Shown here piece by piece: positions 7,411 through 63,400 of a stretch of DNA of 64,000 bases (positions within the stretch are counted from its first letter, which is position 1; each line of letters begins with the position of its first letter). The DNA is from Eledone cirrhosa (lineage: Eukaryota). The notes beneath the pieces are model-generated. The model made no database searches, was not told the origin of the DNA, and was given only the letters and a program-made list of their open reading frames with translations. The position numbers and the translations under genes were made by a program. Location: assembly GCA_964016885.1 (NCBI GenBank), contig OZ024763.1, positions 8,866,001 through 8,930,000 of the forward strand, written 5' to 3'.

Positions 7411-7640
7411 GGCAGCAAATTGGCAGAGTTGTCGGAACATCGGATAAGAATGCTTTGCGGTACACGTTCTGGCTCTCTGCACTCTGAGTTCAAATCCTAC
7501 CAAGGTAAACTTTACCTTTCATCCTTACGGGGTCGATAAAATAAAGTACCAGTCACGCACTGAGGTTTGATTTAATCGACTTTCCCCTCCCCCAAAATTG
7601 ATGGCCTTGTGCCTATATAAGAAACTATTATTATTATTAT
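7411..7640 (+). mobile_element. tRNA-derived SINE with Deu/Nin-like core (family also at ~75-220, 16003-16185, 32090-32583, 34830-35020 on +; 2460-2545, 17410-17495, 18925-19050, 35470-35570 on -)
   Basis: A-box-like TGGCAGAGTTG, B box GAGTTCAAATCC, core CCTTTCATCCTTACGGGGTCGATAAAATAAAGTACCAG, (ATT)n tail. Confidence 0.8.
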
Positions 7641-7657
7641 ATATATATTATATAAAA

Positions 7658-7845
7658 TTGTTTCTACTTTAGGCACAAAGCCAGCAAATTACCCAGTACA
7701 TTACTGGTACTTTATTTTATCGACCCCCGTAAGGATGAAAGGCAAAGTTAACCTCGGCGGGATTTGAACTCAGACTGTAAAGGGACATAACTATGCTAGA
7801 AAGCATGGCGTCCAACCCTCTACCGATATTGCCAATTCACCGCCC
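7658..7845 (-). mobile_element. same SINE family, tail-to-tail with the preceding copy
   Basis: Reverse complement of the core and B box (GGATTTGAACTC). Confidence 0.8.
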
Positions 7846-12496: not shown

Positions 12497-13400
12497 CTGA
12501 TAGACCCATTTTAAGTGTTTCTGTGTCTCTGTTTCTGTTGTCAGAAAAAGAAGTGCCAGCCTGTCTCAGTTGAGGTGCGCAAATGTCAACATAAATATGT
12601 GATTGGTCAGAAGAGAGCAAATATCCAGGAAATTCTGGAAGCCACAGGAGTCTCTGTGGAAGTACCAAGTTTGGAAAGCCCCTCAGGAACTATTACACTT
12701 CGTGGGGAAGAGGATAAGCTAGGACCTGCCCTTACTATGGTGTACTCCAAGGTAAACTATATATCACTTTTGTTTTTACCTTTTGTCTTCTGTCATCTGG
12801 TCTTCTCACTCATGTCTCTCTCTCTGTCTATCTCTCTATCTCTGTCTATCTATCTCTCTCTCTCTGTGTCTATCTCTCTATATATTAGAGAGCCGGAGCC
12901 TGGCAGCTGAGCTCTCGTCATTTTGACAGCAAATTCCAGACTGGGGATAAAATTCTATTGTGAAAACAGCCATCTCATCAGTGGCTTGGTCTAAGGAGTC
13001 GATAAGTGGAAGAAAGTATGTATATATATATATATTATATATATATACAAAAAAATTTACATGTCTCTCCTCTCTCTCTCTCTCTCTTCTCTCTCACCCA
13101 AACCCTTCTTTATACAAAACCAAGATATTTGTCTTAATGTATCCCTCCTATTTCAGGCCAACAGTGTGATTGTGGAGGAAGTAAAGGCTCCAGCTTGGCT
13201 TCACAGGTTCATTATTGGAAAACAGGGTTCCAATATAAAGAAGATCACACAAAACACTCCAAAGGTAATTTTATATTTTTACTTATTTGTTATATTTACA
13301 GTCCAACATAGGTTTATAATATCTACAGTCCTTACTGTAGAGTGGTTGGTTTTAGGTAGGACATCCAACTGTAGAAACCATGCTCCCAGTACACACACGT

Positions 13401-13436
<36 letters not shown>

Positions 13437-14052
13437 TTATGTAATAAACAACATAAGGCAATTATTCCATTTACCAGTGGTTTCTTAAAAGCAAAAGATT
13501 TTGCTTTCAATCCTCAGAAATTCAATAAACAGGCCAGGATGTTTTCATTCTGAGGATTGAAAGCAAAATCTTTTGCTTTTAAGAAACCACTGGTAAATGG
13601 AATAATTGCCTTATGTTGTTTATTACATAAATATTAAGCTCTGTTACCTACATAGAGCACTCTTTTTTCCTGGACTTTTCCGACGGAATTACTTCATTCA
13701 TACACATATATATATATATATATGGGATATCAAGTTATCGTTTTAGGTAATCCAGTTAGAGGTTGTGAGTACTCTGTACTATGGATAGTTTTAATGTACG
13801 GCGTTGTTTGACTCAACAAGAGGTTTCCTTAGTTAGGTAGCGAGTTTGCGAGAATTCCCGTGCAGATCATTCTTGGAGTAATAATAGTGAAAGAGTGAAG
13901 AATAACATGGTCGGCTGTACAAAAAGGGTTTTATTTACAGTATTAACAATTGTTTCATTGATCAGGTGAGTCTAAAGGCTGCTAATCACTCGGAATTGAG
14001 TCACTCGACCTTAAATAGAGTGTGTGTGTCTCTGATCAAATCATCGGAATAA

Positions 14053-14089
<37 letters not shown>

Positions 14090-15712
14090 GATATGCTGAC
14101 ACATAACATTGGTGTTAGGAAGGGCATCCAGCTGTAGAAATCAAGCCAAAATCAGTTCCTGTATGAGCAAGGCATGGTCAGCCGACCAGACACTGCCCAC
14201 AACAGGACAACCCGTTTAACCCATGCTAGCATGGAAGAACGGATGTAAAACGATGATGATGATACATACATAGAAATGTACACATACTCACACACATTCA
14301 TATACACACACTGTTTTTATCTAAGTCATTAATATTTAATCTTCAATGATTGTTTCAGGTTCACATTGAATTCACTGAAGGACAGGACAAGATCAATATT
14401 GAAGGACCTCCTGATGAAGTGGAAGAGTGTGTCCAGAAACTCTCTGAGTGTATCAAGGACTTGGTTAGTGCCCACCTACTACGCTGTCTTCTATCGGATA
14501 TTGTCTCACATACATACATACATACATACAAACACACATGCTCCTTCACACATACATACATGCTCCTTCACACATACATACATGCTCTTTCACACATACA
14601 TACATTTCTCTCACACACATGCTCTCACACACACACACACACTTTCACATATACATACATCTCTCACACACATACATCTCTCACACACATACATCTCTCA
14701 CACACATACATCTCTCACACACGTACATCTCTCACATATACATACATCTCTCACACACATACATCTCTCACACACATACATCTCTCACACACATACATCT
14801 CTCACACACACACACACATGCTCTCTCTCACACACACACATGCTCTCTCTCACACACACACATGCTCTCTCTCTCACACACACATGCTCTCTCTCTCACA
14901 CACACATGCTTGCTCTCTCTCACACACATGCTCTCTTTCACATACACATGCTCTCACACACACACACACATGCTCTCTCACACACACATGCTCACACACA
15001 CACACATGCTCTCCCTCTCACACACATGCTCTCTCTCACACATACATGCTCTCTCACACATACATGCTCTCTCACACATACATGCTCTCACACACATACA
15101 TGCTCTCTCTCACATACATGCTCTCTCATACACACGCAAGTTCTCACACACACAAGTTCTCACACACATGCTCTCACACATGCTCTCTCATGCTCTCACA
15201 CACATGCTCGCACACACACACATACATACATGCTATCACATATATACACATTCTCTCTCACATCACCTCCCTCCCTCCCTCTCTCCCTCCCCCATAAATA
15301 AACATCACCATGGCTACAACAGCTTAATTCTTCAATAATTTACTTTGTTTTAAATTTTAATTAAATATTTTAAAAAAAAATTCTTTTAAAATTCTAATTG
15401 TTTTTTAAAATATTCTGTTACAGGGCAAAAGAATGGATTTTGATGAGATTGAAATTGATCAACGATTTCACAAACATATCATAGGCAAGAATGGTGCAAA
15501 TAGTAAGTCTTTGATACACTGTGTGTGTGTGTCTGACACTGTGTGTGTGTGTCTGACAGTGTATGTGTGTGTCTGACAGTGTATGTGTGTGTCTGACACT
15601 GTGTGACACTGTCCGACACTGTGTGTATGTCCGACACTGTGTGTGTGTCTGACACTGTGCGTGTGTGTCTGAAACTGTTTGGGCATTTATACCTATATAC
15701 TCATACATATAA

Positions 15713-19606: not shown

Positions 19607-20858
19607 ATGTGTTGTATTAAGTATTTATATATTGTGTGTGTTACCGATAGGTTCGTGAAAAAACTGGTGCTAGAGTGATCTTTCCCAATGAACATGACAG
19701 TGATCCTGAATTGATCTCAGTTATTGGGAAGAAGGAATCTGTCGAACAAGCCAAAGAGGAACTGGAAAATCTAATCAAAAGTTTGGTTAGTATTCTTTAT
19801 CTTCTTCTTAAGTCTGATATTATTAACCACCAGCACTACTGCCATTACCACTTCTACTTCTACTACCACAACATCATTACCACCACTTCCATTACTATTA
19901 CCACCATTACTACTACTATTACTCCTAACACCATCACTACCACCAACACCACACTAATTCCATCTGTATCAATATATATTATATATATATATTTGTAACA
20001 CCACCATTACCGCAACCAATACCACTCTCACAACCACCACCGCCATCACACTAATTCCATTTGTATCAATATATCTAGCATACTCTGAATGCCTTGCTTC
20101 CCTGGGTATGGATACATTAAAGCTCTGACGTCTGGCAGCTGACTTGGTAGACACCAACAAAATTATTAACCATCTTGCCAACAACAACCCAGAGCACCTT
20201 TTTGAATTTCATGTGTCTTACACCTGTGGACATGCTTACAAAATCAGAAAACAGTACAGCTGCTATGACTTTCAGAATCATTTTTTTCACACTGAGTTGC
20301 TGAAGCATAGAAGAAACTGTCTGCATCAGTTGTTAGAGACACTCCATCCTTCAAAACCTCCATGCTTCCTGAAATTCACCAACACTACACCTGATATTCC
20401 CCCTCTATACACACACATGAGTCTGTGTGTGTATCATGCCTCATACACTGTTCACTTTCCTGACATTTTTACATTATTCTATGTACTATACATGCACCTT
20501 TGATGAATTGTAGTACACCTGAGCATTGTACATAATAATTTTCATTATTATCATTATTATATATATTATATATTTGTAGGACAACATTGTTGAAGGAGAA
20601 GTGAGTGTTGATCCAAAACACCATCGCTATTTTGTAGCCCGCCGAGGCGGTCTTCTGCGGCAAATTGCTGAGGATTATGGCGGTGTCACAGTCAGTTTTC
20701 CCCGTAGTGGGGTCAAAAGTGACAGGATCGTTATCAAAGGGGCCAAGGACTGTGTTGAAGGGGCCAAGCGCAAGATTCTTGAAATTGTTGCTGACCTGGT
20801 GAGTATTTTGGAGATGGGGATTGGTTTTTATTTTATTTTGTGTGTGTATGTATGTATG

Positions 20859-22607: not shown

Positions 22608-24774
22608 AATAATAAAATGTGGAGAAGGAGCACACGAGTTGGAATATATATATATATGAAAATAGGGGAAAAAAGACGATTATTAGGAAGAAAAATATTT
22701 CCTTTTTATTTTTTTCTCTTTTTTCTGGGTTAGAAAATGTTTAAAACAAAATATTTTACTTCGTGTGAAGTGTTAAGGTATTAGTTAATTTATTTATTAA
22801 TTAACAATGGCATTTATTTATTTATTTATATATTTAATAATTGTCTATTACCGGTTTCAGCATTTTATGCATTATCAAAGGGGGGAATTTGTATTGGTGT
22901 AAAATGTTGATGTTGAACATGTTAAGGAAATGGGGAAGAAAGAATAATGTTATTTACAAACAAGATTTTTGAAGTGGAAAAAATGGGGGTAATGTGGAAC
23001 ATAAGGTAAGTTCCACATTACCCCCCCCCCCCCTTTTTTTTTTCTTTTAAACATTCTCTATCCCAGAAAAAAGAGAAAAAAATAAAAAGGAAAAAAATAT
23101 TTTTTTCTCCCTATTTTCATATATATATATATGCTGACGATCTGGTTCTTATAGCAGAATCAATAGAGGAGCTAGAGAATAAATTCTGGCTATGGAAACA
23201 GCAGTTGGAAGCAAGAGGATTGAGAGTGAACCTAGCTAAGACAAAAGTGTTGATGAGTACAAAAGAGGACAAAATTCTGATTCCGTCAGGGAAATGGCCA
23301 TGTTCAATATGCAAAAAAGGAACTGGCATAAATTCTATAAAATGCACACAATGCAGATCCTGGGTACACGAGAGATGTAGCGAGATAGCAGGCAAACTAA
23401 CAGGTAGGGAGAAATACGTATGCAGTAGATGTACAGGGAAATTAGACAGTAGAAGTCGCATTGATAGACATTTTTCAAATGCAGGCGGATGCTATAGAAG
23501 TGGTGGATAGCTTCCAGTACCTAGATCAGATTAGCATGGGAGGGGGGTGTTCCGAGGCCATAGTATCTAGAATAAGGATGGGTTGGAAGAAGTTTAGGGA
23601 GCTGCTTCCTCTGCTGACGAAGAAGGGTTTCTCCCTGCATACGAAAGGCTGGTTATATGATGCCTGTGTGAGGAGTGCGATGCTGCATGGTAGTGAGACA
23701 TGGGCAGCAACTGCAGAGGATATGCGATGGCTGGAGAGAAATAAGGCAAGCATGCTCCATTGGATGTGCAGTGTAAATGTGCGTGAACGACCCAGCATGA
23801 ATGTGTTGAGAGAGAAACTGACTGAGTGGGATAGAATGTAGTGTGCGAGAGAGGAGACTGAGGTGGTATGGACATGTGATGCGTATGAAGGATGACCGAT
23901 GGGTGAAGAAGTGCCAGGAAATGCCAGTTGAAGGAAGACGTGGTAGAGGTAGACCACGAAAAACATGGGCGGAGGTGGTGAGAACAGACGTCAGATCGCT
24001 GAAGCTCACAGTGGAGATGACGAAGGACCGTGACAAGTGGAGAGATGCTGTACTGAATAAGACCCGTCCCACCCTTGCAAGCAGGGAAGAGCGGACGTAA
24101 AATGATGATGATGATATATATATGGAAATCTTTTCATATTACTATTTTCTTTGCTTCTTGCATTATTTAAATATACCGCGACTCTGTCACATTTCCTCCA
24201 CTATACTCTTCTTAGTTGCATCTTCTTCTCACATGTTGATTTCTCTCTCACCCCAGTACCTTCATCGTGCTCAATCTCAAATCTTTTCTCCGCCAGCTCT
24301 ATTCCATTCTCAAACACTACCCCCCTCCTATTTTTTTCTATAAACATTTGCCCATCCCTTCAAGCTTTCTGATTTCTTATTCTTTCTTCTGATAAAGGAC
24401 TAGCGTCCAAATCGTTAAGACCCTCTTTCTGCTATTACAAGCATTAAACTAATATATCCCTTACATATACTGTACCGATTGTGTTATTTCTGTTTACCTT
24501 TTACATATATATATATATATATATATATCTACATACATACATATAACAATTTGTGGCTCCTCTTCTGTTCCCCCAGAGCGCGTCACTATTACCCCTCCTG
24601 AAGAAGATGCAGCTACTGCTATCACCAATGGAGATGTGATTCCGAATGCGGAAACTTCTCTGGACTCTGGCACTAACAAAACCGACGTAATTCTCATCAC
24701 AGGCAAACCAGAAAACTGTGAAGAGGCTAAAAAAGCATTACAGGTCAGTGTTAATATTTACCTACTTCTTTATA

Positions 24775-24815
<41 letters not shown>

Positions 24816-25060
24816 CAACGGCCTTACGTCTTTGAAATACATATAACAAAATAAATAGGGATGTACAAATGAAACCGTCTTTCTTTATTATTATGTGTAT
24901 ATATATATATATATATCATCATCATCTTCGTTTAACGTCCATTTTCCACGCTAGCATGGGTTAGACGGGAGTTGTCCAACTTGAGACAAGGCTGGTCGGG
25001 TGACCGTGTCTCGCTCATATAGGACTATGTGGCAGGTTTTCTACGGCTGGATGCCCTTCC

Positions 25061-25119
<59 letters not shown>

Positions 25120-25198
25120 ACTGTCTGTCATATTTTTTACCATAGGTATTAAGAAACACTGATCGGTAATGTGTGTGTGTGTGTGTGTAAAGAGGTAA

Positions 25199-25236
<38 letters not shown>

Positions 25237-25284
25237 TTACCTCTTTACACACACACACATTAAATATCAGTGTTTCTTAATACC

Positions 25285-25336
<52 letters not shown>

Positions 25337-27329
25337 AATAATAATTACAAAGACCAGCCCAAAGAGGGCTCGATAACGATTATATATATATATATATATA
25401 TATAAGTATATACAAATCCGTAGAAAAAACTTTAATCTAAATTAGTAATATATATATATATAAATAAACACACAATGCTGGTCAGTGTGTGTGTGTCTAT
25501 ATATATATATATATATACACACACACATGCATATGTGTTAATACCTCTCTATTTATATCTATGTCTTCATCTGTCCACTACATCTTTAATATATGACTTA
25601 TTTTCCATTTTCTTCCTCCACTGTAGGCATTGGTCCCCATTACTTTAGAGGTGGAAGTTCCATTTGAGTTCCACCGTTTCATTATTGGACAAAAAGGTAA
25701 AGATGTTCGTAAGATGATGGAGAACCACGAAGTAAGCATTACTGTTCCACCACCTGAAGACAAGAGCAACATTATTAAAGTTACAGGACCTCCAAACAAT
25801 GTCCATGGGGCTAAACAGGCTCTGGAAGAGAGGTGCACGGCTTTGGAGAGTGAGAAACAGGACAGAGTATGTTGTACCTCTCTCTCTATCTTTTTATCTT
25901 CTCTCTTTCTCTCTGTATTATCTCTTTTGTTTTCTTGTCATCACCCCACCTCCAACCATTTCTTTGTTGCTGATGAGTCTGTCTTGTTTCTGTTTACACA
26001 CAGACAGATACATGCATACATACGCACATATACATAATGGTAACGCATGAAGACGTTCTCTTGATATGAGCAAAATGTATGCAAGAGTAATGTAAATGCT
26101 AAAGGTTTTAAAAAGATCACGATAGTCTCTAGCTATTTTCTGAGTTGCTGTGGGTCTATTACCCCAATTCTTCTGGTCCCCACCAGAATTACTGTCTGTC
26201 ATATTTTTTGCCATATCTCATTAATTCTGCTTCACTTTTCAGCTGTTGCGTAGTTATAAACTCGAGGTTGAAGTGGACTCTCAATACCACCCAAAGATTA
26301 TCGGCAGAAAAGGAGCTGTTATTACTAAAATACGTTCAGATCATGATGTTAACATTCAGTTCCCTGAACGAAGTGAAGCTCAGAATATTATCACCATAAC
26401 AGGATACGAAAACAACGCCAACCTGGCTAAAAAGGCAATTCTTGAAATTGTCCACGAGCTGGTAAATATCTCTTTATGTCTCAAACTTCCAAAAAACTGA
26501 AGAATTATGAAATTTATAGAAAATGTAGGCAAGTTAGATGTAGGAAGTAGCTGTAAACACAGTCTGTAGCTTGTAGTAAGAAACTCTAAGAAGAGCTGAA
26601 CTTCGGAAAAGAAACCCACTCTACTCAAGCGAGTGTTTTGGCCCTTAACTTCTTACTCTAAAAGGGATGGGCCACATCCAAGACATAAATAATAGTTTAG
26701 AAAATCGGGTGAAATACCCCTATGTATGAGATAAAGTGGTGACTCTCTCCCCAATTTTCTATTGAGAAATATCAATTTGTTGATGCAGAAGTAAATATTT
26801 AAAAAGAATTATGACCAAATATTGCCTTTAGAAAATGAAAAAAACATCACGGTAATAAGTGAGGGCATTCTCTTGAGATGAGCAAAATGTATGCAAGGAG
26901 AATTATATCATTAGGTGAAGTGGAGTATATATGTATGTATGTATATGTGTATATATATGTATTTTTATGACATTTACGTTTGTGTCTGAATAAATCTATT
27001 TTATATTCCAGGAGGACATGACAAGTATCTCTGTGAAAATCGATCCTCGTGTACATCCACGGATAATTGGTGCAAAAGGACGTAATGTGAAACGCCTGAT
27101 GGATGACTACAAAGTGGACATCAAGTTTCCCCGCCCAGAGTCTGACGAGCCAGATGTGATCACCATCACAGGGGCTGAAGAAGATTGTTTAGATTGCCGA
27201 GAATATCTTATGGGTTTTGAAGAGGAATATGTAAGTAAAATCACTGTAACTCTGTTTATAAATCTTTCGATATATACATACATACATACAGGCCTATATA
27301 TATAATGTGTATGTATGTATATATACCGC

Positions 27330-28469: not shown

Positions 28470-29970
28470 AAATATAATATAGTTAGAAACTCACAATAAA
28501 ACCCCTAAGATCAAGGGAGCTGAAGGAAGAGAGACCGAGTTCATATATCATAGCAATGAGAGAAGGCACAATGAATTGTCTGATAATAGGGAATTTTAGC
28601 CCCTATTCATCATCATCATCATCATCATCATCATTTTACGTCCGCTTTTCCCTGCTTGCAAGGGTAGGACGGGTCTTATTCAGTACAGCATCTCTCCACT
28701 CGTCACGGACTTTTGTCATCTCCACCCTGAGCTTCAACGATCTGAGGTCTGTTCTCACCACCTCCGCCCATGTTTTTCGTGGTCTACCTCTACCACGTCT
28801 TCCTTCAACTGGCATTTCCTGGCACTTCTTCACCCATCGGTCATCGTCCATGCGCATCACATGTCCATACCACCTCAGTCTCCTCTCCCGTACACTACAT
28901 TCTATCCCTCTCAGACACAGTTTCTCTCAACACATTCATGCTGGGTCGTTCACGCACATTTACACTGCACATCCAACAAAGCATGCTTGCCCCATTTCTC
29001 TCCAGCCGTCGCATATCTTCTGCGGTAGCTGCCCATGTCTCACTACCATGCAGCATCGCGCTCCTCACACAGGCATCATACAACCGGCCTTTCGTACGCA
29101 GGGAGAAACCCTTCTTTGTCAACAGAGGAAGCAGCTCCCTAAACTTCTTCCAACCCGTCCTTATTCTAGATACTATGGCCTCGGAACACCCCCTCCCATG
29201 CTAATCTGATCTCTTAGGTACCGGAAGCTATCCACCACTTCTATAGCGCCCTCCTGCATTTGAAAAATGTGTCTATCAATGCGACTTCTACTGTCTAATT
29301 TCCCTGTACATCTACTGCATACATATTTCTCCCGACCTGTTAGTTTGCCTGCTATCCCGCTACATCTCTTGTGTACCCAGGATCTGCATTGTGTGCATTA
29401 TATTATCTGACATAATTTATGTGCCTTCTCTTATTGCTATGATGATGATCATCATCATTTTACGTCCGCTTTTCCCTGCTTGCTAGGGTGGGACGGGTCT
29501 TATTCAGCACAGCATCTCTCCACTTGTCACGATCCTTCGTCATCTCTGCCATGAGCTTCAGTGATCTGAGGTCTGTTCTCACCACCTCCGCCCATGTATA
29601 TATATATGATATAAATATATATACACATATATATGCACACACACATATATATATATATACACATATAATATATATATATATACACATACACACAAGTCTA
29701 CACTAATATGTGATCTAAACTATATTGATGTTGTTCACCCCTGCACAGCTTCAAGATATAATTGACCAGGAATACCTGAAAGAACTCCACGAACCACCCA
29801 GCCGATCAGATGTTAATGGGGCTCCGAAAGAATCTAAAGGGTTCTTTGTGAAAGACGCCCCATGGGATAAAGTCCCTGACACAAACAGTACTGATGAGTT
29901 CCCATCCTTCGGGACTGCTGTACCTCTGCCGAAACCCTCCCAGGCTTGGGGACCACTCAAGCGAAAATAA
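8039..29970 (+). CDS. HDLBP: Vigilin / high-density lipoprotein-binding protein (multi-KH RNA-binding protein); 23 coding exons, 1249 aa
   Basis: Exons join through GT-AG introns with compatible phases: 8039-8200, 8550-8658, 8954-9069, 9826-10029, 11342-11557, 12545-12751, 13157-13264, 14359-14463, 15424-15502, 15809-15948, 16411-16629, 17225-17311, 17673-17804, 18633-18851, 19406-19492, 19651-19785, 20580-20798, 21020-21158, 24577-24743, 25627-25866, 26243-26461, 27012-27230, 29749-29970 (sum 3750 nt). The protein has the vigilin N-terminus (TYDEAFPAL...TQIFTVPLEERR...GEQAKIC...SLAKDQ), 14 KH repeats with HxxIIGxxG-type motifs and the C-terminal APW...DEFPSFG...WGP tail. Confidence 0.96.
8550..8658 (+). 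CDS. HDLBP: vigilin coding exon 2
   Basis: tttttgcag|IFTVPLEERRFKEINEHSFGEEGEQAKICRDIMQKT|gtgagt. Confidence 0.93.
8954..9069 (+). CDS. HDLBP: vigilin coding exon 3
   Basis: tttcag|(G)VSIEMSLAKDQSLTVVISGKPDDVMKARREVVSELQTQ|gtaatg. Confidence 0.93.
9826..10029 (+). CDS. HDLBP: vigilin coding exon 4 (KH, GKNG)
   Basis: tttag|ASYTIKIPKEHHRFILGKNG...CTSDEQ|gtatgt. Confidence 0.93.
10922..11056 (-). ncRNA. hammerhead ribozyme motif with long branched stem II (antisense in intron 4)
   Basis: Minus strand reads CTG-CTGATGA-A-GTTACTCT...GGGGTAAC-A-GAAA-CTAG(TGCA)TTAG-TC^CGG. Stem I is only 3-5 bp. Confidence 0.65.
11342..11557 (+). CDS. HDLBP: vigilin coding exon 5 (KH, GPHN)
   Basis: tttag|AKLAFERIPVPKIYHPFICGPHNN...LEEK|gtaagt. 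Confidence 0.93.
12545..12751 (+). CDS. HDLBP: vigilin coding exon 6 (KH, GQKR)
   Basis: tcag|KKKCQPVSVEVRKCQHKYVIGQKRANI...MVYSK|gtaaac. Confidence 0.93.
12890..12992 (-). ncRNA. decayed hammerhead of a dispersed family (3' half-copies at 688-728 -, 1527-1567 +, 6991-7045 +, 37265-37340)
   Basis: CTGATGA-GATGGC...GCTGTC-AAAAT here; the other copies read GAAATAGCCRTC-GAAA-CGGC-NNGAGCTCN-GCCG-TC. Confidence 0.55.
13157..13264 (+). CDS. HDLBP: vigilin coding exon 7
   Basis: tttcag|ANSVIVEEVKAPAWLHRFIIGKQG...TPK|gtaatt. Confidence 0.93.
13433..13634. repeat. perfect inverted repeat, 87-bp arms, 28-nt spacer
   Basis: 13433-13519 is the exact reverse complement of 13548-13634. Confidence 0.95.
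13543..13602 (+). ncRNA. type I hammerhead ribozyme motif in vigilin intron 7 (sense strand)
   Basis: TTTCATT-CTGAGGA-TTGAAAGCAAAA(TC)TTTTGCTTTTAA-GAAA-CCACTGG-TA^AATGGAA. Stem I 7 bp, stem II ~11 bp, short stem III, cleavage triplet GUA at 13593-13595. Confidence 0.8.
13940..14052 (-). ncRNA. variant hammerhead motif with extended stem II (antisense in intron 7)
   Basis: Minus strand reads TATT-CCGATGA-T-TTGATCAG...CTGATCAA-T-GAAA-CAATTG-TT^AATA, followed by AATAAA. The core carries a U4->C change. Confidence 0.55.
14105..14262 (+). mobile_element. RTE-tailed SINE 3' part (other copies 18400-18565 +; 5420-5530, 11578-11790, 21360-21560, 24916-25060, 36575-36830 -)
   Basis: GTTAGGAAGGGCATCCAGCTGTAGAAA core; CCATGCTAGCATGGAAGAACGGATGTAAAACGATGATG tail. 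Confidence 0.75.
14359..14463 (+). CDS. HDLBP: vigilin coding exon 8
   Basis: tttcag|VHIEFTEGQDKINIEGPPDEV...IKDL|gttagt. Confidence 0.93.
14505..15260. repeat. compound (CA)n/(CT)n low-complexity minisatellite
   Basis: Repeated CATGCTCTCTCACACACA and CATACATCTCTCACACA units. Confidence 0.9.
15424..15502 (+). CDS. HDLBP: vigilin coding exon 9
   Basis: ttacag|GKRMDFDEIEIDQRFHKHIIGKNGAN|gtaagt. Confidence 0.92.
15809..15948 (+). CDS. HDLBP: vigilin coding exon 10
   Basis: tttcttag|(I)SRIKNETGVAIQIPSD...MAQRM|gtcagt. Confidence 0.92.
16411..16629 (+). CDS. HDLBP: vigilin coding exon 11
   Basis: ctgcag|ENEKSRDIMIEQRFHKTIIGARG...QQEL|gtcagt. Confidence 0.93.
16860..17112 (+). mobile_element. 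old, diverged RTE LINE 3' fragment
   Basis: gaggagattgcactggtatggacatatgatgcgtatg resembles the RRLRWYGHVMRM-coding segment of the other copies. Confidence 0.6.
17225..17311 (+). CDS. HDLBP: vigilin coding exon 12
   Basis: ttcag|VTNNYQAQVQIFKEFHKNIIGKGGATIKK|gtaaac. Confidence 0.93.
17673..17804 (+). CDS. HDLBP: vigilin coding exon 13
   Basis: tgcag|IRDETDTRIELPHENMNSDMIVITGKK...QKDL|gtgagg. Confidence 0.92.
18633..18851 (+). CDS. HDLBP: vigilin coding exon 14
   Basis: ttttcag|ANIKEITVEIPSKFHNSIIGAKG...TSEK|gtaggg. Confidence 0.93.
19085..19362. mobile_element. hAT-like MITE
   Basis: TIRs CAATGGTTCTTAACC / GGTTAAGAACCACTT; 8-bp TSD AATTAGAG / AATTTGAG (7 of 8 match). Confidence 0.75.
19406..19492 (+). 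CDS. HDLBP: vigilin coding exon 15
   Basis: tttcag|QLSSYTATIRAKPAYHKFLIGTGGSKIKK|gtaagt. Confidence 0.92.
19651..19785 (+). CDS. HDLBP: vigilin coding exon 16
   Basis: gatag|VREKTGARVIFPNEHD...LIKSL|gttagt. Confidence 0.92.
20075..20560 (+). mobile_element. CR1-type LINE 3' end (ORF2 C-terminus, 3'UTR, (ATT)n tail)
   Basis: Decayed T.GHAYKIRKQ...HFFT.RVAEA..KL.ASVV...SFK motif; the 3'UTR recurs inverted at 41018-41133. Confidence 0.7.
20580..20798 (+). CDS. HDLBP: vigilin coding exon 17
   Basis: ttgtag|DNIVEGEVSVDPKHHRYFVARRG...VADL|gtgagt. Confidence 0.93.
21020..21158 (+). CDS. HDLBP: vigilin coding exon 18
   Basis: ctgcag|DAQVVVECVIAQKYHRTVMGARG...PVNG|gtaaag. Confidence 0.92.
21678..22560 (-). 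mobile_element. Penelope-like/retrozyme-like repeat, copy 1, with degenerate hammerhead at 21894-21938
   Basis: Shares ~550 bp with 27468-28020. Minus strand reads CTGAGGA-GCC(CAACTTA)GGC-GTAA-CATGTG-TA. Flanked by (TA)n. Confidence 0.55.
22655..23120 (-). mobile_element. inverted-repeat-bounded element with a degenerate minimal hammerhead (22845-22882)
   Basis: 22655-22750 is inverted relative to 23038-23120; minus strand TTGATAA-T-GCA(TAAAA)TGC-T-GAAA-CCGG-TA; (TA)n at both ends. Confidence 0.45.
23130..24114 (+). mobile_element. 5'-truncated RTE-clade LINE (RT C-terminal half), frameshifted
   Basis: YADDL, GLRVNLAKTKV, C4HC3 cysteine cluster, LHGSETW, RLRWYGHVMRM, GRGRPRKTW, (GAT)n tail. 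Confidence 0.9.
24577..24743 (+). CDS. HDLBP: vigilin coding exon 19
   Basis: ccccag|(E)RVTITPPEED...DVILITGKPENCEEAKKALQ|gtcagt. Confidence 0.9.
25143..25286. repeat. fold-back palindrome centred on (TA)n
   Basis: TAGGTATTAAGAAACACTGAT...GTAAAGAGGTAAATACATG(TA)nCATGTATTTACCTCTTTAC...ATCAGTGTTTCTTAATACCTA. Confidence 0.9.
25627..25866 (+). CDS. HDLBP: vigilin coding exon 20
   Basis: ctgtag|ALVPITLEVEVPFEFHRFIIGQKG...KQDR|gtatgt. Confidence 0.93.
26243..26461 (+). CDS. HDLBP: vigilin coding exon 21
   Basis: ttttcag|LLRSYKLEVEVDSQYHPKIIGRKG...VHEL|gtaaat. Confidence 0.93.
27012..27230 (+). CDS. HDLBP: vigilin coding exon 22
   Basis: ttccag|EDMTSISVKIDPRVHPRIIGAKG...FEEEY|gtaagt. Confidence 0.93.
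27468..28206 (-). mobile_element. same repeat family, copy 2, with its terminal segment inverted
   Basis: 27468-28020 matches 21855-22418; 28025-28206 is the reverse complement of 21678-21868. Confidence 0.6.
28607..29399 (-). mobile_element. 5'-truncated RTE-clade LINE, same family
   Basis: Reverse complement closely matches ~23340-24114; (CAT)n tail at left end. Confidence 0.9.
29448..29596 (-). mobile_element. RTE LINE 3' fragment
   Basis: TWAEVVRTDLRSLKL...PTLASREKRT plus (CAT)n tail. Confidence 0.85.
29749..29970 (+). CDS. HDLBP: vigilin coding exon 23 (terminal)
   Basis: gcacag|LQDIIDQEYL...FVKDAPW...DEFPSFG...AWGPLKRK-TAA. Confidence 0.93.
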   Translation, partial: LQDIIDQEYLKELHEPPSRSDVNGAPKESKGFFVKDAPWDKVPDTNSTDEFPSFGTAVPLPKPSQAWGPLKRK

Positions 29971-33024: not shown

Positions 33025-33088
<64 letters not shown>

Positions 33089-33301
33089 TTAATATACCAA
33101 AGTTTCACTTAAATGTTTTTAATGATTATCAACTGTTATGTACATTTCACAGGTGATTGGTCCTTGTGGATGTTATAGACCTGACCCTAGTATTGATCTG
33201 TTTTTAGTTGAAGCACCATATCTGATGACCAGATTGATACTGTAACATCCATATGGACCTTGAGCCAATCATCTGTGAAACATGTGTAATGGTTGATAAT
33301 C

Positions 33302-33307
33302 AATAAA
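33302..33307 (+). terminator. candidate distal polyadenylation signal of vigilin
   Basis: AATAAA ends a stretch of unique sequence (~33090-33300) and is followed by GT-rich CTTTGTTGTT. The motif is common in AT-rich DNA. Confidence 0.35.
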
Positions 33308-33610
33308 AACATTTATGTGAAACTTTGTTGTTAAACTTAATATTTACACTCTGCTTTAGCATAACATGATAATACTGGTACCACCTCTAGTAATTTACAA
33401 ATCAATCCACAGAACTCTGGTGGCTGTCGAAAAAAGCCAAAACAATGTTTGTTTCAACAATGATTTTTAAAAAAAATGTCCAAATTTTTAAGAAGAAAAA
33501 AAATGTAATTAAAAATAGCAAATAAACAATAAAATAAATTCCTTGATTTGTTAGAAAGTTACAAGTTATTGTTTTATATTGTTGAGGGAATAGAAACTCC
33601 AGTGGCTTAA

Positions 33611-37919: not shown

Positions 37920-40900
37920 GTTCTAGTCTTCTAGAAGCCATTTCTATATTAAATATTGTATATACTCTACTCTTTCCTTGGAATGAGACTTCTAAACATT
38001 TAGAAGCCAATTTCTATAATAAATATTGTATATACTATATTATTTCTTTCGAATGAGACAGTTCTAGAGCTTTAGAAGCCATTTCTCCAATAAATAATGT
38101 ATATACTCTACTATTTCATTCGAATGAGACAGTTCTAGTCCTGTAAAAGCCCTTTCTACATTAAATATTGAATATACTCTACTTTTTTCATAGAATGAGA
38201 CTCTTCTAGAGCTACTGAAGACATGTATACATGAAATATTGTATATACTCTAAGATTTTCTTCGAATAAGACAGTTGTAGCCCTTTAGAAGCCATTTCTA
38301 TATGAAATATTGTTTATACTCTACCTTTGAATATGTCAGTTTTAGAATGGTAGAAGGCATTTCAATGTGAAATATTGTATATAGTCCATTATTTTCTTCA
38401 AATAAGACAGTTTTAGTCCTGTAGAAGCCATTTCTACACAAAATATTCTATATACTCTACTATTTCCTTCAAATGAGGGAGTTCTCGTCCTCTAGAATCC
38501 ATTTCTATATGAAATATTCTCAATACTCTACTATTTCCTTCGAATAACACAGTTCTAGCCCTCTACAAACCATTTCTATATGAAATATTATATATACTCT
38601 ACTATTTCCTTAAAATCAGGCAGTTCTAATCCTCTAGAAGCCATTTCTATATTAAATATTATATACACTCTACTATTTCCTTTGAATAAGATAGTTCAAG
38701 CCCTCTAGAAGACATTTGGATATGAAATATTGCATATACTCTACGATTTATAAGCCATTTCAATGTGAAATATTGTAAATACTCTACTATCTCCTTCGAA
38801 TAAGTCAGTTTCTGTCCTGTAGAAGCCATTTCTACATGAAATATCGAATATAATCTAATATTTCCTTCGAATAAATCATATACTCTACTATTTGCTTCAA
38901 ATAAGTCTGTTTTAGACCTGTAGAAGCCATTTCTACATGAAATATCGAATATAATCTAATATTTCCTTCGAATAAATCATATACTCTACTATTTGCTTCA
39001 AATAAGTCTGTTTTAGACCTGTAGAAGCCATTTCTACATGAAATATTGTATATACTCTACTATTTCGTTCGAATAAGTCAGTTTTAGAACTATAGAAGCC
39101 ATTTCTATATGAAATATTGCCTATACTCTACTATACTCTACTATTTCCTTCAAAGAAGTCAGTTTTAGACAGGTAGAAGCCATTTCAATGTGAAATATTG
39201 CATATACTCTACTATTTCTTTCGAATAGCTCAGTTTTAGACCTGTATAAACCATTTCTACATGAAATATTGTATTTACTCTATTATTTTCTTCAAATAAG
39301 ATAGTCCGAGCCCTCTAGAAGCCATTTCTATATGAAATATTTCATATATTCTATTTCCTTCGAATAAGTCAGTTTTAGATCTGTAGAAGCCATTTCAATG
39401 TGAAATATTGTATATACTCTACTATTTCCTTCGAAGAAGTTAGTTTTAGACAGGTAGAAGCCATTTCTATAGGAAATATTTTATATACTCTAAGATTTCC
39501 TTCAAATGAGATAGTTCTAGCACTATAGAAGACATTTCTATATGAAATATTGCATATACTCTACTATTTCCTTCGAATAAGTCAGTTTTAGACCTGTAGA
39601 AGCCATTTGAATGTGAAATATTGTATATATATACACTACTATTTCCTACGAATAAGTCAGTTTCTGTCCTGTAGGAGCCATTTCTACATGAAATATCGTA
39701 TATACTCTAATATTTCCTTCGAATAAGTCAGTTTTAGAACTGATAGTTCTAGCACTCTAGAAGACATTTGTATATGAAATATTGCATATACTCTACTATT
39801 TCCTTCGAAGAAGTCAGTTTCAGACATGTAGAAGCCATTTCAATGTGAATTATTGTATATACTCTACTATTTCCTTCGAATGAGATAGTTGTAGTGCTCT
39901 AGAAGCCAATTCTATATGAAATAATGCATATAATCTACTATTTACCTCGAATAAGTCAGTTTTAGACCTGTATAAGCTATTTCAATGTGAAATATTGTAT
40001 ATATGCTCTACTATTTCTATGGCTTCTAAATGACTAAAACTCTCTTATTCGAAGGAAATAGTAGAGTATATACAGTATTTAATATATAAATGGCTTCTAC
40101 AGGTCTGGAACTGTTTCATATATGACTTTCGGAAACAGGCTTAAAACTGTTCGATTTACAAGGAAATAGTAGGGTATATACAGTATTAATATAGAAATGG
40201 CTTCTAAATGACTATAACTCTATTATTCGAGGGAAATAGTAGATAATATACACTATTTAATTTAGAAATGGTTTCTACAGGCCAAGAACTGTTGAATTCT
40301 GGAGGAAATAGTAGAGTATATACAGTATTTAATATATAAATGGGTTCTACAGGTCTGAAACTGTTTCATTTGAAGGAAATAGTAGTGTATATACAGTATT
40401 TAATATAGAAATGGCTTTTAAATGCCTAAATCTCTCTTATTCGAAGGAAATAGTAGAGTATATATAGTATTTAATTTAGAAATGGCATCTACAGGTCTGG
40501 AACTGTTTCTTCCAAAGGAAATAGTAGAGTATATACAGTATTTAATAAAGAAATGGCTTCTACAACCCTAAAACTGCTTAATTCGACGGTAATAGTAGAG
40601 TATATACAGTATTTAATATAGAAATAGCTTCTATAGGGCTAGAACTGTCTTATTCGAAGGAAATAGTAGAGTATATACAGTATTTAATATAGAAATGGAT
40701 TCTAAATGACTAAAACTCTATTATTCGAGGGAAATAGTAGATAATATACAGTATTTAATTTAGAAATGGCAGCTACGGGTCTAGAACTGTTTCATTTCAA
40801 GGAAATAGTGGAGTATATACAGTATTTAATAAAGAAATGGCTTCTACAGGCCTAGAACTGGGTAATTTGATGGTAATAGTAGAGTATATACTGTATTTAA

Positions 40901-42440
40901 TATAGAAATAGCTTCTACAGGGTTTGAACTCTCTTATTCGAAGGAAATAGTAGAGTATATACAGTATTTAATATATAAATGGCTTCAAAAGGTCTGGAAC
41001 TGTTTCACTTGAAGGAAATAATAATAATAATAATGAAATATTATGTACAGTGCTCAGGTGCACGACAACTCATCAAAAAGTGTATGTATAGTACATAGGG
41101 TAATGTACAAACGTCAGGAAAATGAACAGTGCACGGAAATAATAGTGTATATGCAATATTTAATACAGATATGGCTTCACCAGGACTAAAACTCATTAAT
41201 ATGAGGGGTATTAGTAGTATATACACCATATTTAATATGGAACTGGCTTCTAAATGAAGATATCTATTTAATTCGATAGAAATAGTAGAGTATATCCAAT
41301 ATTTAATACAGAAATGGCTTCTACAAGACTGAAACTCATCAGTATGAGGGGTATTAGTAGTATATATGCCATATTTAATACGGAAATGGCTTCTAAATGC
41401 AGAGAACTCATTTATTCGATGGAAATAGTAGTGTATATCCAATATTTAATACACAAATATCTTCTACAGGACTAATACTCATTAATATGAGGGGTATTAA
41501 TAGATTATATGGCATATGTAATACAGAAATAGCTTCTAAATGACTAGAACTTTTTAATTCAAATCAAATAGTAGTTATATCCAATATTTAATACAGATAT
41601 GGCTTCTACAAGACTAAAACTCATTAATATGAGGGGTATTAGTAGATTATATGCCAAATTTAATACAGAAATGGGTTCTAAAAGACTAGAACTCTTTATT
41701 TCAAATCAAATAGTAGTATATATGCAATATTTAATACAGAAATGGCTTCTACAAGAATAAAACATTAATATGAGGGGTATTAGTACATTATATGGCATAT
41801 TTAATACAGAAATGTGTTCTAAAAGACGAACTCTTTATTTCGAATCAGATAGTAGTATATATGCAATATTTAATACAGAAATGGCTTCTACAAGAATAAA
41901 AATCATTAATATGAGGGGTATTAGTGCATTATATGCCATATTTAATATGGAAATGGCTTCTAAATGCAGGGAACTCATTAATTTGTTGGAAATAATAGTG
42001 TATATGCAATATTTAATACAGATATGGCTTCTACAGGACTAAAACTCATTAATATGAGGGGTATTATTAGTATATATGCCATATTTAATACGGAAATGGC
42101 TTCTAAATGCAGAGAACTCATTTATTCGATGGAAATAGTAGTGTATATCCAATATTTAATACAGAAATGGCTTCTACAGGATTAATACTCATTAATATGA
42201 GGGGTATTATTAGATTATATGGCATATGTAATACAGAAATAGCTTCTAAAGGACTAGAACTCTTTAATTTGAATCAAATAGTAGTATATATGCCATATTT
42301 AATACGGAAATGGCTTCTAAATGAAGATATCTATTTAATTCGATGGAAATACTAGAGTATATCCAATATTTAATACAGAAATGGCTTCTATAAGACTAAA
42401 ACTCATCAATATGAGGGGTATTAGTACATTATATGGCATA
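37920..42440. repeat. 71-bp satellite array (orientation switch ~40018; 142-bp dimeric variant after 41134)
   Basis: Unit CTCTACTATTTCCTTCGAATAAGTCAGTTTTAGACCTGTAGAAGCCATTTCTACATGAAATATTGTATATA; equivalent positions at 38074, 38145, 38216. Confidence 0.95.
41018..41133 (-). mobile_element. CR1-type LINE 3' tail inserted in the 71-bp satellite
   Basis: Reverse complement matches ~20445-20560; GGAAATAATA on both sides. Confidence 0.75.
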
Positions 42441-60400: not shown

Positions 60401-63400
60401 AAATACCGCTTAAATGGCTAAAACTGCATCATCAATGACTAAAACGACTCTAAATTAGCTAAAACAGCATCATAGATGACGAAAATGATACAGGAATGAC
60501 TAAAACGGCTACATAAATGATTAAAATGAATCTAAAATAGCTAAAACGGCATCATAATGCCTAAAACACTATCACAAATGAGGAAAATGACTCTAAAATG
60601 GCTAAAACAGCATCATAATGGCTAAAACACTATCATAAATGAGGAAAATGACTCTAAAATGGCTAAAACAGCATCATAAATGACGAAAATGTTTCTAAAA
60701 TGGCTAAAACTGCATCATAATGGCTAAAACATTATCATAAATGAGGAAAATGACTCTAAAATGGCTAAAACAGCATCATAATGGCTAAAACACTATCATA
60801 AATGAGGAAAATGACTCTAAAATGGCTAAAACAGCATCATAAATGACGAAAATGTTTCTAAAATGGCTAAAACTGCATCATAATGGCTAAAACATTATCA
60901 TAAATGAGGAAAATGACTCTAAAAATGCTAAAACAGCATCATAAATCCCTAAAATAACACCAAAATGGCTGAAACGGCATCATAAATGACCAAAACGACT
61001 GAAAAATGTCTAAAACGTTATCATAAATGACGAAAATAACACTACAATGGCTAAAACAGCATCATAAAATGGCTCTAGAAGTGCTAAAACGGCTAAAATA
61101 GCGTCATAAACGACTAAAATGATTCTTGAATGACTAAAACTGCATCCTAAATGAGTAGAATGATTCTAAAATGGCTAAAACGCATCATAAATGACGAAAA
61201 TAACGCTTAAATGATTAAAACGGCATCATAAATGAGTTAAATGACTATGAAGGCCTAAAACCGCATCATGAATGACTGAAATGACACTAAAATTGCTAAA
61301 ACAGCATCATAATCGCTAAAACACTATTATAAATGAGGAAAATGACTCTAAAATGGCTAAAACAGCATCATAAAGGACAAAAATGACCAAAAATGTCTAA
61401 AACGGCATCATCAATTACGAAAATGACTCTAAAATGGCTAAAACTGAATTATAAAACTAAAATGGCATCTAAATGTGATAAAACGGCAAATAAATGACTA
61501 AAACGACTCAAAAATGGGTAAAACGGCATCATAAATGACTACAGCAACACTTAAACGGCATCATAAATGACGAAAATATCTCAATAAGGGCTAAAACGGC
61601 ATCATAAATGACTAACATAACACCAAAATGACTTAAACGCCATCATAAATGACTAAAACGACTCAAAAATGTCTAAAACGTCATCATAAATTACGAAAAT
61701 GACTCTAAAATGACTAAAACAGCATCATAAATGAGTAAAATGACTCTAAAACGGCTAAAACCGCATCATAAATGACTAAAACGGCATCATAAATGCGTAA
61801 AATGACTCTAAAAGGCCTAAAACGGCATCATAAATGACTAAAATAACACCAAAATGGCTAAAACGGCATCATAAATGACTAAAAGGACTCATAAATGGCT
61901 AAAACGGCATCATAAATGACTACAGCAACACTAAAATGGTAAAATGGCATCATAAATGACGAAAATGACTCAAAAATGTCTAAAACGGCATCTTTAAAAA
62001 TGAAAATGACTCTAAATTGGCTAAAATTTGATTATAAATTACTAAAATGACTTTAAAAGGGCTAAAACGACATCATAGATGACGAAAATGACACTAGATT
62101 GAGTAAAACGGCATCATAAATGACTAAAATGTCTCTAAAATAGCTAAAACAGCATCATAATGGCTAAAACACTATCACAAATGAAGAAAATGACTCTAAA
62201 ATCGCTAAAACAGCATCATAAATGACTAAAATAACACCAAAATGGCTTAAACAGCATCATAAATAACTAAAACGTCTCAAAAATTTCGTAAACGTCATCA
62301 TAAATGACGAAAATGACTCTAAAATGGCTAAAACAGCATCATAATGGCTAAAACACTAGCATAAATGAGGAAAGTGACTCTACAATGGCTAAAACAGCAT
62401 CATAAATGACGAAAATGACTCTAAAAGGGCTAAAACGGCATTATATATAACTAAACGACTCTGAAAACGCTAAAACAGCATCATAAACGACCAAAATGAT
62501 TCTTAGATGGCTAAAACAGCATCATAAATGACTAAAACGACTCAAAAATGTCTAAAGCGGTATCATAAATGACGAAAATGACTCTAAAATGGCTAAAACT
62601 GCATTATAAAAGACTAAAATGACTCTAAAGGGGCTAAAACGGCATCATAAATGACTAAAACGACACAAAAATATGTAAAACGCCATCATATATGACGAAA
62701 ATGACTCTAAAATGGCTAAAACAGCATCATAAATGACGAAAATGACGCTTAAATGGCTAAAACAGCATCATAAATGAGTAAAATGAGTCATTTATGAGGC
62801 CGTTTTAGCCATTTTGGAGTCATTTTAGTCATTTATGATACCGTTTTTGCCATCTTAGAGTCATTTTAGTCATTTATAATGTAGTTTGTCCCATTTTAGA
62901 ATCATTTTGATCGTTTATGATGCCGTTCTAGCCATTTTAGTGTCGTTTTAATCATATAAGATGCCGTTTTAGCCATTTTAATGTCATTTTCTTCATTTAT
63001 GATAGCGTTTTAGCCATTATGATGTTGTTTTAGCAATTTTAGTCTCATTTTATTCATTGATGATGCCGTTTGAACCATTCTGGAGTCATTTTACTCATAT
63101 ATGGTGCCGTTTCAGCCATTTTAGTCATTCATGATGCCGTTTTAGCAATTTAGAGTAGTTTTAGTCCTTTCTGATGCTGTTTTAGCCATATTAGAGTGAT
63201 GTTAGTCATTTATGATGCCGTTTTAGCCATTTGAGAGTGACTTTAGTAATTATTGATGCCGTTTTAGCTATTTTAGAGTCATTTAATCAATTATGATGCC
63301 GTTTTACTCATTTTAGAGTTAATTTAGTCATTCATGATGCTGTTTTAGCAATTTAGAGTAGTTCTAGTAATTTATGAGGCTGTTTTAGCCATATTATAAT

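Follow-up and report, generated by a model that had tools for sequence, protein, structure and literature searches.

A two-armed remnant, probably of a Hydra-clade Penelope-like retrotransposon, in vigilin intron 7 of Eledone cirrhosa, with a hammerhead motif predicted to be locked

The inverted repeat in intron 7 of the vigilin gene of Eledone cirrhosa was very probably left by a young Penelope-like retrotransposon of the Hydra clade, as a short two-armed remnant set in a (TA)n microsatellite and likely formed by two cDNAs which were primed on opposite strands from two fixed starts; the hammerhead that it carries is predicted to be locked and without function. The family can be identified and has two fixed ends, the layout recurs at many other loci, and the two copies overlap by 2 nt at their junction. 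We also describe a conserved hairpin in the leader of the element which may explain where its copies begin.

Locus and anatomy of the insertion

The window analysed is a stretch of 64,000 nucleotides (contig OZ024763.1 of assembly GCA_964016885.1, positions 8,866,001 to 8,930,000), and coordinates are given within it. The placement in vigilin intron 7, proposed in a first-pass annotation of this DNA, was confirmed by tblastn with two octopod vigilins, which matched the + strand in 23 and 22 exon-sized pieces and put the site between the seventh and eighth coding exons. These exons lie at 13157..13264 and 14359..14466 (+ strand, ends approximate, from the vigilin matches and a spliced contig); the numbering counts coding exons of vigilin, with the 5′UTR exons outside the mapping. 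The intron has GT..AG splice sites, and exons 7 and 8 are joined in one assembled contig with the same organism label, which comes from a different sample and may be with or without the insertion. A contig of organism B ends at 13385, short of the insertion site.

The arms of the hairpin, 13433-13519 and 13548-13634, are complementary at 87 of 87 bases across a 28-nt spacer, exactly as first described, and the fold of 13400-13670 has a z of -27 against 200 shuffles. The originally annotated span, 13433..13634, holds good for the hairpin and misses the rest of the insertion, namely the tail from 13635 to about 13700; the whole remnant amounts to about 270 bp of DNA. Read from the left, the first half of the (TA)n target microsatellite (13412..13432, a flank shared by 1,800 exact short ends) is followed by an inverted 5′-truncated copy of the element on the − strand (13433..13519, 87 nt), which begins at the short end of the family (equivalent to 13634). 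It meets, through a two-base overlap or microhomology (13518..13519, the family match beginning at 13518), a forward 5′-truncated copy made of the pseudo-LTR end and tail (13518..13700, + strand), which is 97-99% identical to 39 other scored copies. Within the forward copy lie the element-derived spacer (13520..13547, + strand) and a one-sided tail of about 65-70 nt reaching from the short end to the long end (13635..13700, + strand). The end of the tail is blurred by CA/TA microhomology at 13698-13704, and the right half of the (CA/TA)n target follows at 13705..13724. The outer ends of the hairpin insertion are the two fixed ends of the family, each abutting (TA)n, the left arm being the short-end copy and the right arm the long-end copy. 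There are two private changes in about 190 nt, both in the spacer (13533 and 13541) and none in the arms, which could hint at homogenisation of the arms or at selection, two changes being weak evidence.

Two other origins of the hairpin were rejected. A MITE or foldback DNA transposon does not fit, since the outer ends are unlike (one-sided tail) and the repeat continues into an RT ORF; a pre-miRNA was likewise rejected as the origin. The Rfam miRNA and sRNA matches were of the generic long-hairpin type and far below cut-offs.

Several further features were recorded in the window. Intron 7 also holds a 300-bp high-copy element directly after the TA tract (13733-14030; 3,068 candidates, 93-96% identity), with other repeats at 14109-14263 and 13330-13385; these full and partial copies we take to be SINE-like. 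A 784-bp inverted repeat, 93% identical (23337-24115 / 28621-29403), encloses four vigilin coding exons (24576-27242), and inverted repeats flanking exons in this way can favour back-splicing or exon skipping. Three more local hairpins were seen in or near vigilin, at 25143-25286 (88%), 7466-7791 (70%) and 33077-33346 (70%). For the exon at 20580-20798 a match was found in the Argonauta vigilin and none in the O. bimaculoides protein model P0039. The stretches 37920-42440 and 42461-64000 are taken up by satellite arrays with repeat units of 71 bp and 41 bp, with strand flips near 40100 in the 71-bp array and near 62786 in the 41-bp array.

Family identity

The segment 13518-13700 is a dispersed repeat, 97-100% identical at 40 of the 40 places scored among 911 candidates, and an opposite-strand piece adjoins 17 of the 39 scored places other than this one. 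Going upstream, longer copies run into a stretch rich in microsatellites, another hammerhead-like copy and then the ORF region; going downstream, read-through copies reach the ORF start about 240 nt past the hammerhead. The ORF region carries RT (YRDD) and C-terminal GIY-YIG motifs in a single frame. These motifs were read from uncorrected frames, with stops or frameshifts in the copies that were followed throughout, and Pfam gave no RT or GIY-YIG match in the element frames or in three relatives. The tandem period is 4,632 bp; the pair measured contains an insert of about 0.18 kb, which is counted in this figure. The Penelope-like traits seen are partial tandems forming pseudo-LTRs, an inverted truncated copy and a one-sided tail. 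The first-pass annotation had pointed to a Penelope-like origin, and the RT and GIY-YIG frame, the pseudo-LTR tandems, the fixed ends and the Hydra motifs bear this out.

The protein of the Hydra clade, a group of PLEs with a C-terminal endonuclease (Craig et al. 2021, PMC8557442; e.g. Hydra-1_Obim), is marked by RWK, DKT, CxCX5C, CxxC and CxH. In the octopod element RWK and DKT are present in the N-terminal region, the linker is CxCX5C, and CxxC and CxH stand around a conserved E and N; no CCHH motif, as carried by other PLE endonucleases, was seen by eye in the element frame. Further features shared with the clade are the RT with C-terminal GIY-YIG, the targeting of (TA)n, which was also seen here, tandem and inverted copies, and a near-identical palindromic stem III in the hammerhead (PMC8557442); Hydra-1_Obim in the supplement of that paper is closely similar by eye in both protein and stem III. 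On these motifs the family is a distinct member of the Hydra clade, the reference having been compared by eye. It differs from the clade in its longer unit (about 4.2-4.6 kb, against a usual size of less than 3 kb which PMC8557442 gives as general and not strict) with a microsatellite-rich 3′ region, in two hammerhead copies 1.26 kb apart, a U-A closing pair and an 11-bp stem II, in three leader hairpins, and in the length of its tail (about 67 nt, as compared with 30-40 nt).

Two other labels were tried and rejected. For Neptune/Nematis the linker would have to be the CX2-5CxxC zinc-finger type, and it is CxCX5C; a non-LTR retrozyme needs hammerhead units in head-to-tail tandem, and the locus is a single head-to-head pair. 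As separate observations, in another Hydra-type family open frames of ~784 codons are numerous and stand in tandem arrays of 3.5 kb (C1:437200459-437211315, C1:91476261-91487151 and C2:51278573-51285892, on two contigs of the genome), so that this family is likely to have been recently active, and a 183-bp tandem array at C2:169702669-169703614 is built of the three-hairpin leader of the present family.

Fixed ends and formation of the insertion

Exact-pattern counts, for which reversed-pattern controls gave 0, define the two ends. Genome-wide, 1,800 exact matches run from the short end (equivalent of 13634) into (TA)n, and 1,463 copies read past it; the long end near 13700 has 1,302 exact matches, and only 80 continue beyond it. 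Within 1.5 kb an inverted partner was found by BLAST for 19/30 tail-bearing and 8/30 short-end copies (the first 30 of each kind in position order on contig C1), leaving 22/30 short ends without a partner. Among the pairs recovered under stricter matching, the partner carried the other end type in 12 counted from the tail side and in 7 counted from the short side, the two sets overlapping. By extrapolation (19/30 times 1,463) the same layout is common to roughly 700-1,100 loci. Of 15 inverted copies, sampled with a bias towards close matches, 13 have all of stem I within the inverted arm, so that the spared strand at the vigilin locus is best read as chance truncation; that the 5′ strand of stem I lies for the most part outside the arm was correctly seen.

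This arrangement is that of a Penelope insertion unit, for which PMC3846280 and PMC8557442 (Fig. 2 legend) give a head-to-head inverted truncated copy, a tail on one end and a microhomology junction. The vigilin locus differs in that truncation has left less than 200 nt of either copy, and hence only a hairpin, and in that a target-site duplication is unreadable in (TA)n. A second parallel is PAc (Poseidon, Anolis; PMC11167929): this Penelope-like protein, when reconstituted, nicks and extends both strands, priming at AT-rich DNA, and starts at two internal sites which delimit the tail, with the hammerhead dispensable for insertion in vitro.

We therefore favour, as stated at the outset, an origin from two cDNAs. 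The RT/GIY-YIG protein would have nicked both (TA)n strands; a first cDNA would have started at the distal site (about 13700) and run for about 183 nt, a second would have started at the proximal site (13634) and run for 87 nt, and the two would have been joined by microhomology. Each start would lie a few bases 5′ of a conserved hairpin copy which likely positions the enzyme, and if so the tail would equal the spacing of two hairpins.

The same element could also have produced the repeat by folding back, again with no host function: a single cDNA or antisense template would have primed itself at a palindrome and been copied back. We regard this as improbable, though worth keeping in view. Palindromic junctions in the head-to-head repeats of Penelope have been taken as self-priming (PMC3846280), loop-less palindromic junctions (loop 0) occur in 4/15 sister copies, and the minor base at 13631 is common to both arms. 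A fold-back copy, however, would have to end precisely at the internal short end, itself a frequent stand-alone end, and the locus has a forward spacer of 28 nt and a 2-nt overlap in place of a palindrome. Palindromic junctions would also be expected under twin priming, since two same-sense cDNAs can anneal only at self-complementary bases.

Conserved leader hairpin

Four nucleotides past the short end begins a hairpin of the form GCTC-stem-bulge-GAGCACT (13638..13665, + strand), a candidate docking or start signal for the RT. The GCTC...GAGC pattern was found in 47/53 relatives against 4/53 control stretches (metagenome, ≤200 nt upstream of the first conserved motif of the ORF), the 53 being loci with enough leader, and the other 26/79 having a leader that was too short or an ORF start that was not recognised. 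In relatives the pattern is usually double, with about 60-70 nt between the two. Its four outer pairs are fixed by the search pattern; the fifth is independent of it and is C-G in 47, T-A in 19 and other in 3 of 69 instances. The 2-nt bulge has T first in 68/69, and the ACT after GAGC is kept in 63, 68 and 67 of 69 by position. These counts are anchored on the pattern, as the MAFFT alignment did not register the 5′ strand, and they overstate the number of independent events because the instances are related. On this comparison the architecture consists of GCTC and a fifth pair that covaries, then a stem-loop which varies, and finally a bulge of 2 nt and GAGCACT.

Copy ends tend to lie shortly before the hairpin. 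The short end of the family directly precedes 13638-13665; in a sister family 20,338 exact ends lie 3 nt before its hairpin; and 4/5 copies examined from a third family end just before theirs. At the third hairpin of the present family 4/30 read-through copies stop 5 nt before it. The second hairpin is degenerate and unformed in RNAfold, yet the major long end precedes it. In other organisms 8/21 distinct copy ends lie 2-4 nt before the hairpin; the remaining 13/21 fall elsewhere, some of them being subfamily divergence and not ends. The published Hydra consensus contains the motif (PMC8557442 supplement), and no description of it was found in the literature searched, which included the text and supplement of PMC8557442; subscription papers on Penelope structure and the supplements of a preprint lay outside this search and may contain one. 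The hairpin 13638-13665 likely marks the starts of reverse transcription and sets the length of the tail. We lean towards a wider proposal, that the repeated hairpin upstream of the Hydra-clade ORF docks the RT-endonuclease and fixes the start of reverse transcription 2-5 nt upstream, its two copies serving the halves of a dimer which primes both (TA)n strands.

Hammerhead and the antisense arm

A type I hammerhead motif with a predicted cut after 13595 lies at 13543..13602 on the + strand and is the sole match of the type I descriptor in the 64 kb on both strands. The parts first reported for this sense-strand motif are all there (CUGANGA, GAAA and NUH core, three stems): CUGAGGA at 13550-13556, GAAA at 13583-13586, a stem I of 7 pairs, one of them G-U (13543-13549/13596-13602), a stem II of 11 bp and a stem III that is near-palindromic, as in dimer-type motifs. 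The caveats then attached to it were well founded, as stem II closes with U-A and stem III has 3 bp. The proposed Rfam check turned out negative, no hammerhead model matching at the gathering score, nor at E≤10 on stretches of 501 nt and 101 nt.

Metazoan PLE hammerheads of the dimer type (PMC4209133) share the CUGANGA/GAAA core, the long helix II, the short palindromic helix III and the pseudo-LTR location; the motif at the vigilin locus differs in lacking an Rfam match, the extra base after A9 and the G10.1-C11.1 pair, in place of which it has U-A. Sense hammerheads were found in 32/79 relatives' loci and an antisense one in 1/79 (metagenome contigs), and the closing pair of stem II in their 38 sense motifs is G-C in 30, G-U in 5, A-U in 3 and U-A in 0. 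A U-A closing pair lowers hammerhead activity. Among 65 aligned rows of the family, some copies being present twice, common variants fall at N7, in loop II and in distal stem II; others preserve pairing (G-U to G-C, U-G to U-A), as one-sided changes only. Subfamily changes leave the catalytic core intact, which suggests that the ribozyme of the family may be active, and on these sequence comparisons the hammerhead is probably the element's own. The second hammerhead-like copy, which precedes the terminal one by about 1.26 kb, has a CUGAAGA core and a GUG triplet and is likely not cleaved. With the same descriptor no hammerhead was found near the ORF upstream of 30 ORF starts of other Hydra families in the same genome; those 30 regions gave 1 distant sense match and 2 antisense ones.

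Folding was judged by nearest-neighbour energies, so that all values here are predictions. Without the arm, the active fold takes a share of about 1e-2 in 13543-13602 and of 1e-4 to 4e-5 with flanks, and is predicted to be a minor species even then. The private T-to-G change at 13541 forms a local hairpin over the core and thereby would weaken the ribozyme fold in the absence of the arm, raising the penalty from 0.5 to 3.7 kcal/mol. A dimer duplex of stem III is put at -8.2 kcal/mol. With the arm present, the ribozyme fold is about 74 kcal/mol worse than the 87-bp hairpin, and the arm is predicted to pair with the core from the moment the core emerges; the trapping that had been suggested is thus supported by prediction. 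In the pre-mRNA the antisense arm would pair with the emerging hammerhead into an 87-bp duplex, to be removed with the intron. This duplex would be a likely ADAR substrate, and editing would harm the ribozyme and not release it.

Passive filtering may be considered, in which the arm has no regulatory role and clamped intronic copies are tolerated since a sense hammerhead free of the clamp would cut the pre-mRNA. Hammerhead retrozymes are depleted from vertebrate introns according to a preprint (10.64898/2026.07.22.740005). A lone motif of the present kind is, however, predicted to fold poorly and to need a dimer or protein, and we think this filtering quite unlikely; it would be compatible with the reading as a two-armed Penelope remnant.

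The first-pass annotation had gone further and had read the layout as a regulated clamp, in which A-to-I editing or a helicase frees the hammerhead for a conditional cut of the vigilin pre-mRNA. Vigilin is reported to bind inosine-rich RNA, which would make feedback conceivable; the motif is on the sense strand, the duplex is perfect, the arm is transcribed first, and the core spared by subfamily changes leaves room for an active ribozyme in the family. The order of transcription, however, follows from the head-to-head geometry, which puts an antisense arm first on either strand. Against such a clamp stand the youth of the insertion with its 2 private changes, the same layout at hundreds of unrelated loci, the private G13541, the U-A closing pair seen in none of the relatives, and the finding that single metazoan PLE hammerheads were inactive, with weak dimers (PMC4209133), or dependent on the element's protein (PMC11167929). 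Editing of all 33 left-arm adenosines would still leave 29-51 kcal/mol against the ribozyme. In simulated A-to-I editing (random, 10-75% of arm adenosines, inosine taken as G or as unpaired) 0/1,200 trials kept the core intact while bringing the gap below 5 kcal/mol. Core and cut site hold six adenosines, and on these models editing cannot close the gap of 74 kcal/mol without striking them; behind a helicase the duplex would re-form. The reading as a regulated switch is not supported and appears very improbable to us. At the vigilin locus the hammerhead is predicted to be permanently shut and not switchable, and the early caveat that the layout is a by-product of insertion gains from the recurrent layout and the predicted lock.

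An assembly or library fold-back artefact is scarcely credible: none of the contigs examined (four contig sets) spans the hairpin, family-wide sequences piling on the arms, but the arms finish at two different family-specific ends with a TA flank each, and the layout is found at many loci with different junctions and some arm mismatches.

Significance

For the control of vigilin the insertion is most likely irrelevant, an ordinary insertion scar. One family has left several hundred near-perfect hairpins of 60-150 bp in an octopod genome, and these are a likely source of editing substrates.

The data bear on the open question of how Penelope-like elements choose internal starts and make their tails and inverted ends. 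If true, the docking hairpin would explain at once the one-sided tail, with its length as the spacing of hairpins, and the inverted arm, as well as the arrival of hundreds of insertions with a hammerhead already silenced by an antisense copy. The 28-nt motif is conserved across many organisms, which offers a direct way into studies of binding, mutagenesis and structure, and it may be useful for steering insertion into (TA)n. The two-armed layout was already published; what is new is the lead of the leader hairpin, which makes the mechanism of start sites and tails in the Hydra clade testable.
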